Under the pieces are notes generated by a model. It was not told the origin of the DNA. It saw only the letters and a program-made list of their open reading frames with translations, and made no database searches. Both the position numbers and the translations under genes were made by a program. Of a stretch of 64,000 nt of DNA, positions 12,886-21,318 are shown one piece after another. The stretch comes from Bradymonadia bacterium (GTDB taxonomy: Bacteria; Myxococcota_A; Bradymonadia; UBA7976; UBA1532). Numbering within the stretch: position 1 is the stretch's first letter; every line of letters starts with the position of its first letter. Where the stretch lies: assembly GCA_046290225.1 (NCBI GenBank), contig JBKAGE010000054.1, positions 1-64,000 of the forward strand, read 5' to 3'.

Positions 12886-13869
12886 TCAGGCATCCTCGGA
12901 GATGTCTGGTCGGTGTGTCAGGTCGAGTGGGTAGATGTTCTGCCCCATATAAAACTCTACCTTCTGCACCCCCTCACGGGGCAGGTTCTTCCGCTTGTTC
13001 TCTTCCAAGACTGCGTACCAGACTCGGTTCACCTGCTCTCGAAAATCAGCCAGAATGCCTGTCACATCTTCATAGTGAACGTGCCCTTCGAATACATTGA
13101 AGGAGATCGTGGACATTCCAGTGCTCTGGTCTGTCGGCTTGCTGCTGATGTTGTGAAGCCGAGTGATCATTGTTCTGATCACAGTACCATAGTGCTCGAA
13201 CATAGAAGCATAGAATCCCTCTACAGAGCCGACGGGGATATAGCACTCTCGGCAGGTGTAAGCGTCCTGGGCCTCGAGGTAGGATGCTTTGTTCTGCTCG
13301 ACCAGCGATGCAATGATCTGCTCAGCGAGCTCTATCGGTAAGTGCAAGTCCTCGCTGATCTCCGACGTCTTCATCGGGCCATGCCTGTAGACATGAGCCC
13401 ATACAAGCAGGCTCTCCTCTTCACAGAGTGTGTGAAAGAAGGACGATGTCTTCGAGGTCTCGGTATAACCTTTGTCAGTCTTCGCGATGACGTTGTTGGC
13501 GATGAGATCGTTGAGTATGGAGATGATCTGCCCCTCATCATACTGCAGAAAATTATCAATGATTTCCTGACGCCCACAGCCCTCGCTGTGATGGATGTAC
13601 CCGATGACGGACATCCAGATGGTCTTCTCGTCCGGTTTGAACTCCCTGATGCGATGTACCCGCCGTTGGAAGGTCCGCGTGGACATACCGAACATGTCGG
13701 CGATGACTTTGCGGGTAATGCCCTTCTGTTCGAGGTGCGCCGAGATGTCCATGAAGAGGAGATCGAAGATGTCAGAAAGCGGGGTTCTTGCACCATTCAT
13801 CGTGCTGACCTCAGCGAGCAGCACCGCTGTACTGTGAATGATTTGTTCAATCAGCACTTTTTGGATCAT
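12886..13869 (-). CDS. Putative multi-HTH DNA-binding protein (uncharacterised)
   Basis: HTH-like RKVIADMFGMSTRTFQRR plus two winged-helix-like segments (RQEII..ILNDLIANNVIAK; TSEISEDLHLP..IIASLVEQ); visibly lower GC than the flanks. Confidence 0.65.
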   Translation of the reverse strand: MIQKVLIEQIIHSTAVLLAEVSTMNGARTPLSDIFDLLFMDISAHLEQKGITRKVIADMFGMSTRTFQRRVHRIREFKPDEKTIWMSVIGYIHHSEGCGRQEIIDNFLQYDEGQIISILNDLIANNVIAKTDKGYTETSKTSSFFHTLCEEESLLVWAHVYRHGPMKTSEISEDLHLPIELAEQIIASLVEQNKASYLEAQDAYTCRECYIPVGSVEGFYASMFEHYGTVIRTMITRLHNISSKPTDQSTGMSTISFNVFEGHVHYEDVTGILADFREQVNRVWYAVLEENKRKNLPREGVQKVEFYMGQNIYPLDLTHRPDISEDA

Positions 13870-13983: not shown

Positions 13984-14142
13984 GTCATTCATGCCCAACC
14001 TTGTGGCCCCAGCGCAGGTAAAAGCTGACCTCCAATGACCTCACACGCCTAAAAACATTAGTAATTACCTCAAGCAGGCACAGCAAAGCAGATGGATATT
14101 TCGACGCTTGGGGTTCAGGTCGAATCAACACATCATGAAGGG

Positions 14143-14158
14143 GCGTCATTTTTGACGC
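14143..14158. promoter_or_regulatory. Second GCGTCA-N4-TGACGC palindrome (putative operator)
   Basis: GCGTCATTTTTGACGC, same core and spacing as 13961-13976. Confidence 0.6.
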
Positions 14159-14265
14159 TACCTACATTTATTTACATCAGCGTATGTTTCTACAACCAAG
14201 CAACATCTGTAGGCCCCAGTGAGGGTTCGAGCCCTCGCTTTTCTGTTGTACCGAAAGGACTCGAC

Positions 14266-17200
14266 ATGGCCCTGAAACAGTTCTCCATCGCATGTGCAGG
14301 CCTGGCGACGCTGGCGCTGTGCAACACAGCAACGGCGCAGACGCCGGCGAACTGCGCAGGCATCCTCGCCGCAGGGCAGAGCGTCGGTGATGGTGTGTAT
14401 GCCATCGACCCCGACGGCCCTGGCGGTGATGCGCCCTTCAATGCGTACTGTGACATGACCACCGACGGCGGTGGCTGGACGCTGGTGGGCAACCTGTTCA
14501 ACCGGTGGGCCCAGACCCCTGCTCCAGGCCCCTTCTTCACACAGGACATCACTCAAGCTCAGGGCGGCTGGTCAGCGAACAACGGCAACGGCACCACCAT
14601 CACACCGGCTCAGCCCGGTGTCTTGAAGGTGGATGACTGGGACACGCCCACAGAGATTCGCTATCAGATGGTGGAGCGCGCCAACGGCACAGTGCGCAAC
14701 CAGGTCCTCATCGACGACGCGGCCTCCATCACCCACGTCACGGGTCAGTTCAACGTGGAGCGTGATGCACGCAACGGCTCGGCAACGGGCTTCTCCACGC
14801 CCTTCAACCAGGACCTCACCTTCTACTACGCCAGTGATTACGAGCACACCTGGCATTACTGGGGCGGCATCATGGGCCGCAGCCGCAAGCGCAACGGCTG
14901 GCAAATCGGCCTCTCCGTGAACCAGGCCGACGGCATCAACGGTTACAACAACATCAACGACGACCAGAACCGCGGCCACCTCAACATCGGCGTCGGCGGC
15001 GATCCTCAGGACAACCGCGACATCACGGGCTATTGGGCCGGCCTCTGTGAGAACCAGGGCTGTAACGAGCAGTGGGCCGCCAACCTCGGCTCGGCCACGG
15101 CCTCGTTCCGTATCTGGTACCGCGGCATCGAAGACAGTGATGGTGACGGCATCAACGATGACGTCGACAACTGCCCCAACCACGCCAATGCAGATCAGTC
15201 CAACACCGACGGTGATGCCACCGGTGATGTGTGCGACGCGTGCCCGAACGACGGCACCAACGACGCGGACAACGACGGTGTCTGCCAGGACGTGGACAAC
15301 TGCCCCACCGTCTCCAACGCGGACCAGCTCGACGACAATGGTGATGGCTATGGCGATGCCTGTGTGAGCACCGCCGCCAACATCGACCCCACGGCCACCC
15401 TGGGCAACGACATCATCATCGGCCCCAACGCGGTCATCGGCAGCTACGCCAACATCGGCGACGGCGCCAACATCGGCGGCACCGTAGGCAGCAGCGTCGC
15501 CATCGGTGCGGGCTCGGTGGTCCCCGAGGGTGCCTCTGTGGGGAACGCCGCTCGCATTGGGGCCAACGTGGGCCTCGGCGCTGGCTGCTCAGTGGGGGTG
15601 CTCGCCCGCCTGGCCGACAACATCACCGCGGGTACGAACTGCTTCTTCGGCAGCAAGGCCAACATTGGCACCAACACCAGCTTCGGCAACAACACCAGCG
15701 TCGGTATCCTCGCCGTGGTCAGCGATGGTTCGAGCTTTGCCGACGACGCGACGCTGGGGAACAACAGCCAGCTGGGCGCCAGTGCAGATCTACTCGCCGG
15801 AGCCACCATCGGCAGCAACACCACCATCGGCCACACCCTCAGCCTCGGTGCCGGGGCGAGCATCGAAGGCAACACGGTCATCGGTGACGAGGCCATCATC
15901 GGCGCCGGCGGCATCGTGCGCAGCTACGTGACCATCGGCAACAGCCTGGCCATGGGTGCTGGCGCTGAGTTCGCATCTGGCGCCGCAGCTGGTGACGACG
16001 CCACCGTCGGTGAGAACACCGAGATCCGTGGCGAGATCGGCAACAGCGTCACTCTGGAAGACCGGGTGTTCATCGGCAACCAGAGCGCAGTGGGCGACAA
16101 CGGCCACCTGCACCACGATGTGAGCCTGGGCATCTTCGTCACCGTGGGCTCCGGCGTCACCGTGAACGACGACAGCGCCCTCTATGATGGTGTCACTCTC
16201 GGCGACGACAGCACCGTCGGTGAGCGCTGCACCATCCTCTTCCGCAGCGCCGTCGGTGCCCGTGCCAGTATCGGTGACGATGCCATCGTCGATGAACAGA
16301 TCACCATCGGTGACGACTTCACCTTGGGCAACAACAGCCGTCTGTGGCCCCGAAGCACCTATGGCAACACCGTCAACGTTGGCGCCAACGTCCTCATCCG
16401 CGACACTGCTGATGTCGGCGACGATGTCACCATCGAGGATGGCGTCGTCATCTTCCCCGAGACCACCATCGGAGAGCAGACCACCATCCGCCAGGACGTG
16501 GAGCTCGGTGTGGAGAACTGTGCCAACCGTGTGTGCGGCCAGGTCACCATCGACGGCTGCATGGACATCAACGCCGACGTCGCCCCCCAGGAGCACCGTG
16601 GTGGAGGCTGCGCCGGTGACGGCTCGACTGAGCAGAACCCCATCAGCGGCTGTGGTGACATCAACGTCAGCGGTACTTACTGGATCGACCTCGACGCCGG
16701 TGGCCCGATGCCAGCGCTTCAGGCCTACTGCGACATGGATCGCGATGGGGGCAACTGGATGTTGTTGTCGAACTACCTCTACAACCCCAACGGCTGGGAC
16801 TACGACAACTGGGCAGCTTGGGCGGACTACATCAACGACAACTTCTACGATCTGGAGTTCCGCGTAGAGGCCGAGACTGATCAGGGTCGCTTCTACCGCC
16901 AGTTCAACCGCCCCACGAACATCAATGGTCAAACCACATACGGTGACGCCTACTACGGCGAGTGCAAGCAGGCAGTCGGCGATGAGTATGCAGGGAACGA
17001 CTGGGTCCTCGGCCCCGACGGCCGCATGAACATCTGCTACCAGCACCGTTGCGCCAGCAACCACAACATGCAGTGGACCGACAACATCTTCACCGAGTGT
17101 CACCGCAGCCTCACCGCTGATGACGGCAGCCAGTACATCGCCAACATCAACACCTACTACAGCGGCTGGAACGCACGCTGTGGTGGCCTCAACAAGGGTA

Positions 17201-17985
17201 AGGCAGCCCCCAGCCAGTCCGGGTGTGCGACCAACACCCGCTTTACGACGACGGGCCCTGAGGGTCAGTCGGGATACAACTACGGCGCCAGGATCGGCGG
17301 CCTCGTACGCGGCGGCGTCTCCGTTCGCCTCTATGAGGCGCCAATGCCGACGAGCTGCTTGGGCATCCTCAACAACGACGCCAACGCCGCCGATGGCACC
17401 TACACCATCGATCCCGATGGCGACGGGCCCCTCGAAGCGCTGGATGTGTACTGTGACATGACCACGGATGGTGGCGGCTGGACCCTCGTCGGTGTGCGCA
17501 ACCAGACCACCACCAACGTCGCCGAGGGTGTCTGCCGTACCTTCGAGCTCAACACGGTGCCCTACGACCACACCGGTAATACTGTGGGCTGCCTGTCCAA
17601 CGCTGTGCGTACGGCCATCAGCGGGACCCAGATGCTGACCCACTACGACGACAACGGCACCATGGTGAAGGTGGAGATCAACCGCTCTGGTGAGCCCATC
17701 GACTTCTCCATCATGGAGCAGTGCGAGAACACCGACATGAACAGGCCCTACCGGGCCCGTGTCATCGAGCCCTACGTCACAGAATATTCGGATCAGGTCA
17801 CCGACTCGAACTGTGACAACATCTGGGGGGCATCCAACTACCGTCCGATCCTCCGCTTCAACAGCAACGTCCTCGTTTGGGACGTGTATCGGTTCGATAC
17901 GCGGAACAACCAGTACATCCACGGCACCTCTGTCGAAGGGAATCGCGTACTGCGCCCCCTTGCCGTGAGCCTCTTCGCCCGCTGA
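14266..17985 (+). CDS. Large secreted protein: fibrinogen-related modules, TSP3 Ca-binding repeats, long hexapeptide (LbH) repeat region
   Basis: AAAGGA RBS; signal peptide MALKQFSIACAGLATLALCNTATA; three YCDMxxDGGxW motifs; DSDGDGINDDVDNCP repeats; about 400 aa of [LIV]GxxxxI hexapeptides. Confidence 0.85.
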   Translation: MALKQFSIACAGLATLALCNTATAQTPANCAGILAAGQSVGDGVYAIDPDGPGGDAPFNAYCDMTTDGGGWTLVGNLFNRWAQTPAPGPFFTQDITQAQGGWSANNGNGTTITPAQPGVLKVDDWDTPTEIRYQMVERANGTVRNQVLIDDAASITHVTGQFNVERDARNGSATGFSTPFNQDLTFYYASDYEHTWHYWGGIMGRSRKRNGWQIGLSVNQADGINGYNNINDDQNRGHLNIGVGGDPQDNRDITGYWAGLCENQGCNEQWAANLGSATASFRIWYRGIEDSDGDGINDDVDNCPNHANADQSNTDGDATGDVCDACPNDGTNDADNDGVCQDVDNCPTVSNADQLDDNGDGYGDACVSTAANIDPTATLGNDIIIGPNAVIGSYANIGDGANIGGTVGSSVAIGAGSVVPEGASVGNAARIGANVGLGAGCSVGVLARLADNITAGTNCFFGSKANIGTNTSFGNNTSVGILAVVSDGSSFADDATLGNNSQLGASADLLAGATIGSNTTIGHTLSLGAGASIEGNTVIGDEAIIGAGGIVRSYVTIGNSLAMGAGAEFASGAAAGDDATVGENTEIRGEIGNSVTLEDRVFIGNQSAVGDNGHLHHDVSLGIFVTVGSGVTVNDDSALYDGVTLGDDSTVGERCTILFRSAVGARASIGDDAIVDEQITIGDDFTLGNNSRLWPRSTYGNTVNVGANVLIRDTADVGDDVTIEDGVVIFPETTIGEQTTIRQDVELGVENCANRVCGQVTIDGCMDINADVAPQEHRGGGCAGDGSTEQNPISGCGDINVSGTYWIDLDAGGPMPALQAYCDMDRDGGNWMLLSNYLYNPNGWDYDNWAAWADYINDNFYDLEFRVEAETDQGRFYRQFNRPTNINGQTTYGDAYYGECKQAVGDEYAGNDWVLGPDGRMNICYQHRCASNHNMQWTDNIFTECHRSLTADDGSQYIANINTYYSGWNARCGGLNKGKAAPSQSGCATNTRFTTTGPEGQSGYNYGARIGGLVRGGVSVRLYEAPMPTSCLGILNNDANAADGTYTIDPDGDGPLEALDVYCDMTTDGGGWTLVGVRNQTTTNVAEGVCRTFELNTVPYDHTGNTVGCLSNAVRTAISGTQMLTHYDDNGTMVKVEINRSGEPIDFSIMEQCENTDMNRPYRARVIEPYVTEYSDQVTDSNCDNIWGASNYRPILRFNSNVLVWDVYRFDTRNNQYIHGTSVEGNRVLRPLAVSLFAR

Positions 17986-18119
17986 GCGGAGCCTCTCACC
18001 GGAGATCCTCCTCTGGCCCCGCCTTGACACCACTTACAGCCCCACCATACTGCTCTGGCGTCATCACCCACTGGGAGGGCCAGATCATGCACCTCACTGT
18101 CACCGGGACTGAAACCACG

Positions 18120-18147
18120 ACCCTGTAGAGCAACCGCTCCACAGGGT
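18120..18147. other. Intergenic stem-loop
   Basis: ACCCTGTAGAGC-AACC-GCTCCACAGGGT, 12-bp stem with one mismatch, no U-tract. Confidence 0.4.
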
Positions 18148-18259
18148 CTGGATGGCCACAGCAGCGCCGAGCTGCACCGGCCCGTGTCGTCGTCTTCGCT
18201 GCCCTTGCAGCACACCAGATACGTACGTCAGTTCCGAACATAGACAGTGAGTCGAACAC

Positions 18260-18673
18260 ATGAAGCAGTCCAACCCGCATCTGCGTCGGCAGATGCAGGC
18301 CCTCTGTGCCGAGCTTGGCCCTGAAGACGGCCAGGATCCGTACCTCTTTCATCAAGCCAACGCGCACCCCAGGCATCGGGGTGACCACAAAACACTACAG
18401 CTTTGTGGTCAGGTGGCCCGAGCCATCGATGCTGCCCTCGCCGCAGCAGAAGATCACACCTTGCACACGTGCCGGGTCGCCCGTGTGGAGCCCGCCCCCA
18501 ACGCCCGTCGGCTGCGGGCCACACTGGTCACCGAAGGCTCCGTGGAGATCGCCCGCCTGGCCCTCGACGCCGCCGAGGGCTGGCTGAGGCGAGAGGTCGC
18601 CGCCGCGGTTCATCGCCGCAAGGCCCCTCACGTGCTCTTCATGCTCCAAGCAACGATGGAGGGCGAGCGATGA
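18260..18673 (+). CDS. Ribosome-binding factor A (RbfA)-like protein
   Basis: KH-like RbfA pattern: QLCGQVARAI..D..L..CRVARVEPAPNARRLRA..AEGWLRREVAAAVHRRKAPHVLF; N-terminal extension. Confidence 0.7.
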   Translation: MKQSNPHLRRQMQALCAELGPEDGQDPYLFHQANAHPRHRGDHKTLQLCGQVARAIDAALAAAEDHTLHTCRVARVEPAPNARRLRATLVTEGSVEIARLALDAAEGWLRREVAAAVHRRKAPHVLFMLQATMEGER

Positions 18674-19762
18674 GCGCACCGATGCACACCTAGCTCTCTA
18701 CGCCTCTACACCCCGATGTGCGACACGCGCTCCAACGGATGTGCGCCGCCCCTGGCGTCACCGCTGTGGCAGTGATGCCCGACGTTCACCTCGCAGGTGA
18801 TGTCTGTGTGGGCACCGTGGTGGCCACACAGACATCACCTATACCCCGCCGCCGTCGGTGGTGACATCGGCTGTGGTGTCGCAGCCCTGCCCTTCGATGT
18901 GGATGTAGATGCCATCACACCTCGAACAGGGGCAGCCATCTTGTCTGCGCTGCAACATCTCGTGCCCATCATGCGGCACACCGAGCCACTGCCCTGGCCA
19001 CTCGATCTCGCCGAGGCACCCCCAAGCGGATGCGTCTCGATCAGGCAAGCTCGACAACAACTGGGCACGCTCGGACGAGGCAATCACTTCCTCGAGCTGC
19101 AAGCCGACGACACAGGCACGCTGTGGGTCACCGTGCACAGCGGCTCTCGGGGCCCGGGCAAGGCGATCCGGGACTTTCACGTGGGCACACGCCGGCCCTT
19201 TGATCCCATCGACGCCCGCGCTCCAGAGGGCGAAGCCTACCTCGCCGACCTGTTGTGGGCCCGTGGATACGCTCAGGCCAATCGCCACGCCATGCTCTAC
19301 GCAGCGGCGGCGGCGCTGGAGCGCGTGCTCGGCGCGACGCCAAGTGTCGAAGGCCTCATCGAGTGTGATCACAACCATGTGCAGTGCGAGGATCATCACG
19401 GTCCGTGCTGGGTGCATCGCAAAGGGGCGATCCCTGCACACGAGGGCATGCTTGGTGTGGTGCCGGGCTCCATGGGCAGCGCGACCTTCCATGTCGAAGG
19501 TCGAGGATGCAGCGACGCGCTGTGCTCCAGCGCCCACGGTGCTGGGCGCGCGCTGACCCGAACGCAGGCCCGCCAACAGATCCGGGCCCCAGATCTGGTC
19601 CACCAGATGAGAGGTGTGCTCTTCGATCCGCGCAAGGCACACCACCTTGTCGAGGAGGCCCCTGGGGCCTATCGAGACATCGAGCGGGTCATGCGGGCCC
19701 AGCGCCCCCTCGTGCGCATCCTTCGGCGGTTGAGACCCGTGCTCAGCCACAAGGGTGGCTGA
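18670..19762 (+). pseudogene. rtcB: RtcB-family RNA ligase, disrupted by an in-frame TAG (18691-18693) and a frameshift near 18826-18832
   Basis: Frame from ATG 18670 reads MSAPMHT*LSTPL...VMPDVHLAGDVCVGTVVAT and then stops; the +1 frame continues HLYPAAVGGDIGCG, GTLGRGNHFLE, HSGSRG, HNH, HRKGA, PGSMG, SSAHGAGR, EEAPGAYRDI. Confidence 0.85.
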
Positions 19763-19821
19763 AGCCATGGGGTTTGTGATTCCATGCACGGTGTTACACC
19801 ACGCACACCGGAGCGACACGC

Positions 19822-21318
19822 ATGGGTCACCCCATTTTCAACCCCCGACGCCTGCGTCGGACCCTGACTCGGGCGCTGTGCCTGAGCGCCGCCCTCACCC
19901 TCACCGCTTGTGATGATGACGACAGCGACAGTGATGGCACCGCTGGCGCTGGTGGCGGCGCTGCTGGCGCTGGCGGCGCCGCAGGCGCTGGCGGCGCTGG
20001 TGGTGAAGCCGGTATGGGCGGTGGCGCTGCTGGTATGGGCGGTGGTGCAGCCGGCATGGGCGGCATGATGGGCGGCGCCGGTGGTGAGGCCGGCATGGGC
20101 GGCGAGCCCGGCGGCATGGCCACCTTGCCCCCGAGCGGCGACTACGCCGTGAACGTCACCTTCACCGAGCTCGGCGGCCTCGTGCTGCCCTTCCGTATGG
20201 ATCTCGAATCCGACGCGGCGAACTCCACCTTCACCCGCATCGCCCTGAGGGCCACCGCCGAAGGTATGGTGAGTGATCCAATCGGCGAGGCCACCGACGT
20301 CACCGTAGCCGGCGACGGCACCTTCGTCGCCGACTTCGGCGAGGCCACCCTCCCCGGCGACTTCAGCCCCACAGGGAGCGACGTGGTCTTCAACGTGCGC
20401 TTCGAGGGTACATCCTCTGCCGATGGGATTTGCGGCCTCGTCATTGGCGAGATCACCACCCTGGGCACCCCCGTGAGCATGAGCACCTTCGGCTCGGCCC
20501 TCTACGAGGGCGACGGCACCATGGCGCCGGCTTCGTGTGATGACTCTGGCAACGTCGAAGAGTGCGAGCGACTCACGGCGGAGATGTGCCCCGATCTCAG
20601 TGGCGACACGGTGAGCATGACCAGCTGCGGGGTGGAGCGTGAGTTCAAGCTCTACCTGCCCGAGGGCCACGCTCCTGCCCAGGACTGGCCGATCATCTTC
20701 CTGTACCACGGCCTCGGCGGCAACGCCGAGGGTATGCTCGACGCCACCCAGCTCAAGGGCCTCGCCGACAGCGAGGGCTTCATTTTGATCACCCCCGAGT
20801 CACAGCAGCTGCCTGTGGAGTGGGACCAGCTCACCTTCGGCGACAACCCCGATCTGGCCTTCTTCGACGACATGGTCACCTGTGCTCAGGCGGGCCTCGG
20901 CGCCGACGCAAACCGAGTACACGTCACTGGCCTGAGCGCTGGCGGTCTCTACACGATGTACCTGTCGCTCATGCGCTCTGGCGTCATCGCCTCCGCTGCG
21001 CCCATGTCCGGCGGCTTCATCGCTGGCTACATGCAGCCCGAGCGCACCTTACCGGTGCTGGTGAGCTGGGGCGGTGAGGAAGACTTCGCCGTGGGCCAGG
21101 ACTTCCACATCCTCGCTCAGGATCTGCAAGCTGAGCTCACCACCGGCGGCCATGAATTCATGAGCTGCAACCACAACCGGGGCCATGTCTGGAACGCCGA
21201 CTTCTCCCCCTGGGTGGTGCGCTTTCTGCTCGACCACCCCCTGGGCAGTACGGCCATCAGCTACGATGGCGCCCTGCCAGAGGTGTTCCCCGAGTTCTGT
21301 CAGCTCGGCAGTCAGTGA
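19822..21318 (+). CDS. Lipoprotein with Gly/Ala/Met linker and C-terminal alpha/beta-hydrolase (LpqC/PHB-depolymerase-like esterase)
   Basis: Lipobox LTAC; AGMGGG repeats; FLYHGLGG oxyanion region, VTGLSAGG nucleophile, GGEED Asp, GHVW His. Confidence 0.8.
   Translation: MGHPIFNPRRLRRTLTRALCLSAALTLTACDDDDSDSDGTAGAGGGAAGAGGAAGAGGAGGEAGMGGGAAGMGGGAAGMGGMMGGAGGEAGMGGEPGGMATLPPSGDYAVNVTFTELGGLVLPFRMDLESDAANSTFTRIALRATAEGMVSDPIGEATDVTVAGDGTFVADFGEATLPGDFSPTGSDVVFNVRFEGTSSADGICGLVIGEITTLGTPVSMSTFGSALYEGDGTMAPASCDDSGNVEECERLTAEMCPDLSGDTVSMTSCGVEREFKLYLPEGHAPAQDWPIIFLYHGLGGNAEGMLDATQLKGLADSEGFILITPESQQLPVEWDQLTFGDNPDLAFFDDMVTCAQAGLGADANRVHVTGLSAGGLYTMYLSLMRSGVIASAAPMSGGFIAGYMQPERTLPVLVSWGGEEDFAVGQDFHILAQDLQAELTTGGHEFMSCNHNRGHVWNADFSPWVVRFLLDHPLGSTAISYDGALPEVFPEFCQLGSQ

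Follow-up and report, generated by a model that had tools for sequence, protein, structure and literature searches.

Why would the gene of a ribosome assembly factor stand directly in front of the gene of an RNA ligase and overlap its start codon? RbfA is regarded as a single-copy assembly factor, and for most bacterial RtcB ligases we know of no substrate. In the 64,000-nucleotide stretch of a Bradymonadia contig analysed here (the window), an initial annotation had read an RbfA-like gene coupled to rtcB, and had proposed that its product is an adaptor that delivers RtcB to damaged 30S subunits. Our analysis indicates that the locus is a damaged representative of a real and conserved variant of the ribosome-linked RNA repair operons, one that has apparently not been described previously, and that the adaptor role is not the best account of it.

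Results

The 137-aa product of the first gene (Table 1) has, as modelled, the type II KH fold of RbfA. It scores below the cut-offs of the family models, with 22.8 bits against 34.7 for Pfam RBFA (PF02033) and 16.4 bits against 51.15 for TIGR00082, and a single relative of the paralog barely clears the PF02033 cut-off (35.2 bits). An AlphaFold model made from 37 relatives (pLDDT 85.3) returned RbfA or RBFA-bearing entries throughout ranks 1-15 in Foldseek and aligned with 2dyj over 88 residues (VIA-align, Z 12.7, rmsd 1.9), which bears out the description of the protein as RbfA-like. The profile of the paralog family retrieves RbfA alone from the PDB sequences (6/6) and also finds the canonical rbfA in the infB operons of relatives. 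The window paralog departs from the consensus at 1/21 conserved columns. It is not the housekeeping rbfA, since a canonical rbfA (103.5 bits) sits between infB and truB on another contig of the genome, C34; the gene was thus rightly placed outside the infB-rbfA-truB context, the separate canonical copy that the initial annotation had wished to see confirmed exists, and two of the three objections it had foreseen, a different fold and a sole housekeeping rbfA, fail. A separate strong RbfA match is present in 19/21 pair-bearing genomes (two of the 21 being the same genome).

Table 1. Features of the paralog-rtcB locus and its leader, in window coordinates.
Feature	Position	Strand	Remarks
Sigma-70-like promoter candidate, TTGACA-16-CATACT	18024..18051	+	Consensus match only
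Shine-Dalgarno GGGAGGG (18073-18079) and 13-codon leader ORF (18087-18128)	18073..18128	+
Anti-RBS segment CTCACTGTC in the first codons of the leader ORF	18093..18101	+	Pairs with 18243-18251 in the minimum-energy fold
Hairpin spanning the leader stop codon	18120..18147	+	Predicted fold
GACAGTGAG, ribosome-binding region of the paralog	18243..18251	+	Predicted to be sequestered
RbfA paralog, 137 aa, intact	18260..18673	+	N-terminal extension and type II KH core, without the C-terminal helix
rtcB of the paralog-linked clade, broken	18670..19762	+	TAG at 18691-18693; one-base frameshift near 18826-18832

The coupling of this gene to rtcB, also claimed from the start, stands only in part: the paralog TGA does overlap the rtcB ATG (ATGA, 18670-18673), but the rtcB frame is not open. 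Codon 8, where W is invariant in 54/54 aligned relatives, reads TAG, and one surplus base shifts the frame further on (Table 1). The catalytic motifs are retained, split over two pieces, and the surviving ORF (321 aa) is without the PDVH motif. Because rtcB is broken, a working RbfA paralog-RtcB pair is not made in this genome, which has two other RtcB genes. The damage is probably recent, as there is little other drift in the gene: its downstream piece deviates at 5 conserved columns, where intact relatives over their whole length deviate at a median of 3. In the small share of one run that was searched, no reads of close identity spanned both lesions, which rest on the assembly. An assembly error is nevertheless disfavoured as their cause: a control for breaks at 47 ortholog sites from relatives flagged 7, of which 6 appear from their sequence to be shadow frames, and an assembly with at most 1 unexplained break among 47 sites is not error-ridden. 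Read from its sequence, the window copy is a ligase pseudogene beside which the paralog and its leader are kept, a loss of the ligase in progress.

Intact pairs occur elsewhere, the closest to the window (L006) in a genome of the same family. In metagenome loci chosen by their RtcB alone (the best 80 of at least 522, some of them near-duplicates and 3 too short for scoring), the paralog lies directly upstream in 73/77 scorable cases; one of the others has a paralog 230 nt away and three are without it, two of these being identical in sequence. An even sample of 201 planctomycete genomes, drawn from the phylum to which a Singulisphaera genome belongs, gave 31 genomes with the paralog (34 matches) and 13 with an RtcB of the paralog-linked clade (at least 486 bits), and by coordinates 13/13 of these RtcBs adjoin a paralog; both sister RtcBs in the sample, at 385 bits, are preceded by a more diverged RbfA-like gene, and none of the six remaining RtcBs, which score near 325 bits, adjoins an RbfA-like gene. 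Seen from the paralog, the picture is reversed. In the same sample, 21/34 paralog matches are not directly beside a linked-clade RtcB, and at the best 80 of 225 genome loci chosen by the paralog, rtcB follows directly in 19/80 (linked) and the paralog stands on its own in 61/80 (solo). The paralog was found in 8 of 60 relatives and the pair in 4 of those 8. Across 53 genomes with a solo paralog (49 of the 61 solo-locus genomes and 4 relatives), no linked-clade RtcB was found elsewhere in the genome (0/53, best 230 bits vs 470-640), and 49/53 have another, unlinked RtcB. Kin and duplicate records inflate these pairing counts. The survey of neighbourhoods that the initial annotation had called for thus yields a conserved pairing, and a one-sided one: the RtcB clade depends on the paralog and the reverse is not so.

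The paralog stop and the rtcB start overlap in 83/93 linked loci. No third gene is conserved beside the pair, the best neighbour cluster occurring at 5/100 linked loci, and no conserved regulator was seen there. At one locus (L234:2111-4662, plus strand, genome G321) the paralog, a SpoU-family rRNA methylase and RtcB are consecutive. The paralog or the pair is found within or beside tRNA arrays at 5/160 loci (L026, L125, L136, L071 and L085, with arrays of 4 to 30 genes and an HNH gene close by in several), an HNH gene is upstream in 4 linked loci, and a Band-7/SPFH gene is downstream in L125, L126 and L136. In the window itself, a gene for a 1297-aa protein lies directly upstream of the leader (14092-17985, plus strand), with fibrinogen-C-like segments, thrombospondin type 3 repeats and a long left-handed beta-helix (hexapeptide) region; a 327-aa protein with weak helix-turn-helix matches only is encoded at 12886-13869 on the minus strand, in a stretch of lower GC (0.57 vs about 0.65). 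Elsewhere in the genome, several clusters of tRNA genes, each with 7 to 10 members arranged by amino-acid type, occur on contigs C20, C35, C37, C42 and C79.

In a tree made without a verified RtcB2 reference, the 30 rows of linked RtcBs group together as a single clade (SH-aLRT 100). When aligned to a solved RtcB, their catalytic and metal motifs (PDxH, GxDxGCG, GNHF, HxGSR, HN, HRKG and HGAGR) are invariant or at least 90% conserved in 54 relatives. Intact members score 153.8 and 154.3 bits with TIGR03073, the RtcB2 model, under its cut-off of 271.8, and by this score the clade is not RtcB2. PrfH scored above the TIGR03072 cut-off in 0/21 pair-bearing genomes (two being the same genome), and there is no release-factor cluster among the neighbours of 100 linked loci. 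The window genome has, on contig C8, an RtcB nearest the RtcB2 models (L004:1495-2736, minus strand; 256 bits vs 271.8) with no PrfH match beside it, and on contig C61 a release-factor-like GGQ protein of about 180-200 aa, encoded downstream of an ADP-ribosylglycohydrolase gene (L088:1399-1941, minus strand); no RtcB match was found on C61.

The paralogs make up a single clade, separate from the 12 canonical RbfA rows in the tree (SH-aLRT 100), in a family of 1656 clusters at 50% identity (E up to 1e-10), a count that may take in some canonical RbfA. Linked copies are scattered among solo ones, with 22 changes on a quick tree and at least 5 forced by strong branches, and repeated loss of the ligase is the simplest account of this pattern. 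Two genomes have two paralog copies each, and in G129 there is one linked and one solo copy. An N-terminal extension of ~40 aa is present in most paralogs and undetected in 21/92 linked copies; some solo paralogs, L243-L249 among them, are short (about 100-115 aa) and without it. Two motifs are paralog-specific and absent from RbfA, the N-terminal DDGxDPR and QLCxQV. The near-invariant cysteine of the latter (C49 in window numbering) and the half-conserved C16 of the extension are both absent from canonical RbfA and could form a redox or metal site.

These features bear on the adaptor proposal, according to which the paralog recruits RtcB by direct binding and brings it to damaged 30S subunits. 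The translational coupling points to matched production of the two proteins, the RtcB clade depends on the paralog, and the paralog has conserved motifs of its own; the pairwise identities of the two genes also correlate (Spearman 0.46, 54 pairs of rows), although joint inheritance produces the same. However, DDGxDPR and QLCxQV are equally conserved in solo and linked copies and, with the extension undetected in some of the latter, these additions offer no evident RtcB-binding surface; nor did column conservation, judged by eye, show a clear surface conserved in linked paralogs only. A true fusion of the two proteins is likewise missing. The 531-aa read-through at L057 has lost bases within a run of C and still shows the ATGA junction typical of the pair, and P0187, the one match among 8000 scored candidates in a search for longer proteins (weak evidence in itself), drifts out of frame; both look like frameshift errors. 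With most copies lacking this RtcB and with linked and solo copies interleaved, delivery of RtcB is unsupported as the main job of the paralog, and we consider a physical adaptor unlikely.

A further possibility is that the pair has departed from ribosome repair altogether, the KH protein binding another RNA or a protein and RtcB either having a substrate outside the ribosome or serving as a regulator in the manner of ArmZ of Pseudomonas, an RtcB-like anti-repressor under leader control (PMC12057347). The C-terminal DxS..G.RI helix, present in 22 canonical RbfA rows, is gapped across the paralogs, and the cysteine of QLCxQV is new. The position of RbfA Phe78, the residue that stacks on the 16S 3' end, is W108 in the window and variable in the family (R commonest at 29-33%, W at 13-19%). 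Yet the basic residues of RbfA and the glycine of the AxG motif in the KH loop are kept in the paralog (K44, G107, R110, R119 and R120; the motif reads A105-E-G107 in the window, its G being shared by 74% of the linked paralogs and 86% of the solo ones), the catalytic motifs of RtcB are invariant, and the surroundings of the pair show neither a conserved regulator nor a conserved third gene. We hold a non-ribosomal role to be very improbable.

The region upstream of the paralog contains a leader ORF and helices (18073-18251) that had escaped the first reading of the window. The promoter candidate (Table 1) is the sole such site in 17900-19900, where shuffled sequences lead one to expect 0.2. 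The leader folds with a z of -5.5, the first codons of its ORF pairing with the ribosome-binding region of the paralog, and the predicted unpaired probability of the ribosome-binding site (RBS) is 0.0 in the free leader; a model ribosome placed on leader codons 1-9 raises it to 0.47-0.66. No terminator was detected in the window. Across the family, an ORF of 10-25 codons with a strong Shine-Dalgarno sequence lies 120-240 nt upstream in 69/146 leaders, compared with 1.5 in shuffled sequences (maximum 5); 50/82 linked and 19/64 solo leaders have it. A planctomycete-type leader occurs in 37/147: GAGCCU stands near codon 11, the complementary sequence follows 50 nt later, and an overlapping stretch forms pairs with the RBS. 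In 33 such leaders, picked by motif and with kinship included, the RBS helix has 26 double-sided changes vs 9.4 +/- 3.1 in shuffled alignments, above every slid control, and the cognate RBS pairing outscores all 2000 swaps. The competing helix is nearly invariant and served as a selection criterion, and so is without independent support. At equilibrium, the mean unpaired probability of the RBS in these 33 leaders is 0.29 free and 0.23-0.25 with a ribosome over the upstream segment. A sequence model built from them matches 35 times at 34/99 held-out loci (13 of them solo), never further than about 290 nt upstream of the paralog. The model does not match the window leader, whose sequence differs although its logic is shared, and Rfam left the leaders unmatched, its significant scores being tRNAs only (20 loci). 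Leader ORF and RBS-covering helix together likely constitute a translation-stress attenuator, and in both leader designs a ribosome frozen at the first leader codons would be expected to free the RBS. The link to translation stress implied by the initial proposal thereby gains independent support, from the conserved leader ORF and the covariation of the RBS helix.

Discussion

The reading that we prefer, and to which we would give about an even chance, is that the RbfA paralog, its dedicated RtcB and the leader form a conserved two-gene operon that is switched on when ribosomes stall and restores damaged 30S subunits, the ligase being broken in the window. Ribosomes stuck at the start of the leader ORF, which with its helix is visible in sequence and covariation, would open the RBS of the paralog. 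The paralog, which keeps the RbfA fold and part of its RNA-binding motifs, would then serve as a stress-induced chaperone, keeping the 3' end of the 16S rRNA in place on the 30S subunit. RtcB, whose motifs and coupling are seen in the intact relatives, would reseal the nick on the subunit so prepared, with or without direct contact between the two proteins. In this scheme the paralog would be the core of the system, useful by itself as a 30S re-maturation chaperone, and the ligase an optional add-on that has repeatedly been lost. A SpoU rRNA methylase between paralog and RtcB at one locus also counts in favour of this reading.

A more specific version is a PrfH-independent ribosome repair, in which the paralog keeps the cut-off 3' piece of 16S rRNA clamped to the 30S subunit and offers the nick to the RtcB clade that goes with it, and the leader senses ribosomes frozen at start codons, the state to which cleavage at the decoding centre leads; we regard it as plausible, while leaning slightly against it. 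RbfA has been reported to bind 16S residues 1530-1536 and to delay the folding of the h44/45 linker (PMC8177701), and colicin E3 and CdiA to cleave between A1493 and G1494 (PMC9304027). Ribosomes cut by colicin E3 accumulate at start codons and RtcB2 prefers free 30S subunits as its repair substrate (PMC13166195), and the 16S 3' terminus removed by MazF is re-ligated by E. coli RtcB (PMC5416887). Given this pile-up at start codons, this substrate preference and the MazF precedent at the 3' terminus, a paralog induced by stalling at the start would be in a good position to retain the 3' piece and make the nick accessible to a coupled ligase. A helper for the ligase is not obviously needed, since RtcB2 by itself is reported to repair cut 30S subunits in vitro (PMC13166195). 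Against the preferred reading also stand the missing C-terminal helix of RbfA and the variable Phe78 position, and the leader evidence, as the planctomycete-type leaders hardly switch at equilibrium and the window leader is unmatched by their model.

It is also conceivable that the two genes are merely co-regulated: under a shared translation-stress leader, the paralog would reactivate misfolded 30S subunits and RtcB would repair tRNAs or other RNAs. Solo paralogs, which carry the same leader, are in the majority in both surveys (61/80 and 21/34 matches), and the few loci in or next to tRNA arrays fit tRNA repair equally well, HNH and tRNA-array surroundings being the neighbourhood described for translational-stress tRNA arrays (PMC8421152). 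Co-regulation, however, leaves unexplained why members of this RtcB clade hardly ever occur apart from the paralog (with it in 73/77 and 13/13), and why the overlap of the two genes is so widely kept although nearly all solo genomes have unlinked RtcBs. It is, in our estimation, a rather unlikely account.

The closest known system is PrfH-RtcB2, likewise a two-gene operon of a separate RtcB clade and a ribosome-factor paralog, with a short RtcB of about 380 aa (PMC9304027, PMC13166195). By comparison with what those reports describe, the partner here is an RbfA paralog and no release factor, and is often solo; the RtcB is under the TIGR03073 cut-off, the pair-bearing genomes have no PrfH above cut-off, and 16S rRNA is a putative substrate of the present pair. 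The paralog shares with RbfA (PF02033, TIGR00082; PMC8177701) the KH fold, the AxG glycine, the basic residues of helix 3 and the next loop, and a DP-like loop aspartate. It differs from RbfA, as far as the latter is described there, in being a separate clade outside the infB operon that coexists with a canonical rbfA, and in its QLCxQV motif, its N-terminal extension in most members and its lack of the C-terminal helix. The leader recalls PA5471.1 of Pseudomonas aeruginosa, a short ORF before armZ (RtcB-like) and prfH for which a response to stalled ribosomes was proposed; transcription attenuation is the mechanism put forward in that account (PMC12057347), whereas here a helix covers the RBS. 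E. coli RtcB on MazF-cut 16S rRNA likewise concerns the 3'-terminal fragment, the region bound by RbfA, with an RtcB of another clade in another operon; no RbfA-type partner is mentioned in that account (PMC5416887). In the literature searched we found no description of the RbfA paralog-RtcB pair, though the 2016 RNA-repair survey of Burroughs and Aravind or the RtcB network in the supplement of PMC9304027 may list the neighbourhood. Neither PADLOC nor the plasmids gave a match.

With its ligase broken, the window copy would be a poor reagent; its value is as a record of ligase loss with paralog and leader retained. The family at large, with its own ligase and a ribosome-sensing leader, would allow a direct test of whether assembly factors are reused in the repair of mature ribosomes, and could supply a sensor of failed elongation in Planctomycetota and Myxococcota. 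If PrfH-independent repair is true, an RbfA paralog would have been redeployed from assembly to repair, and the solo copies would represent a widespread, as yet unnamed stress factor for the re-maturation of 30S subunits.
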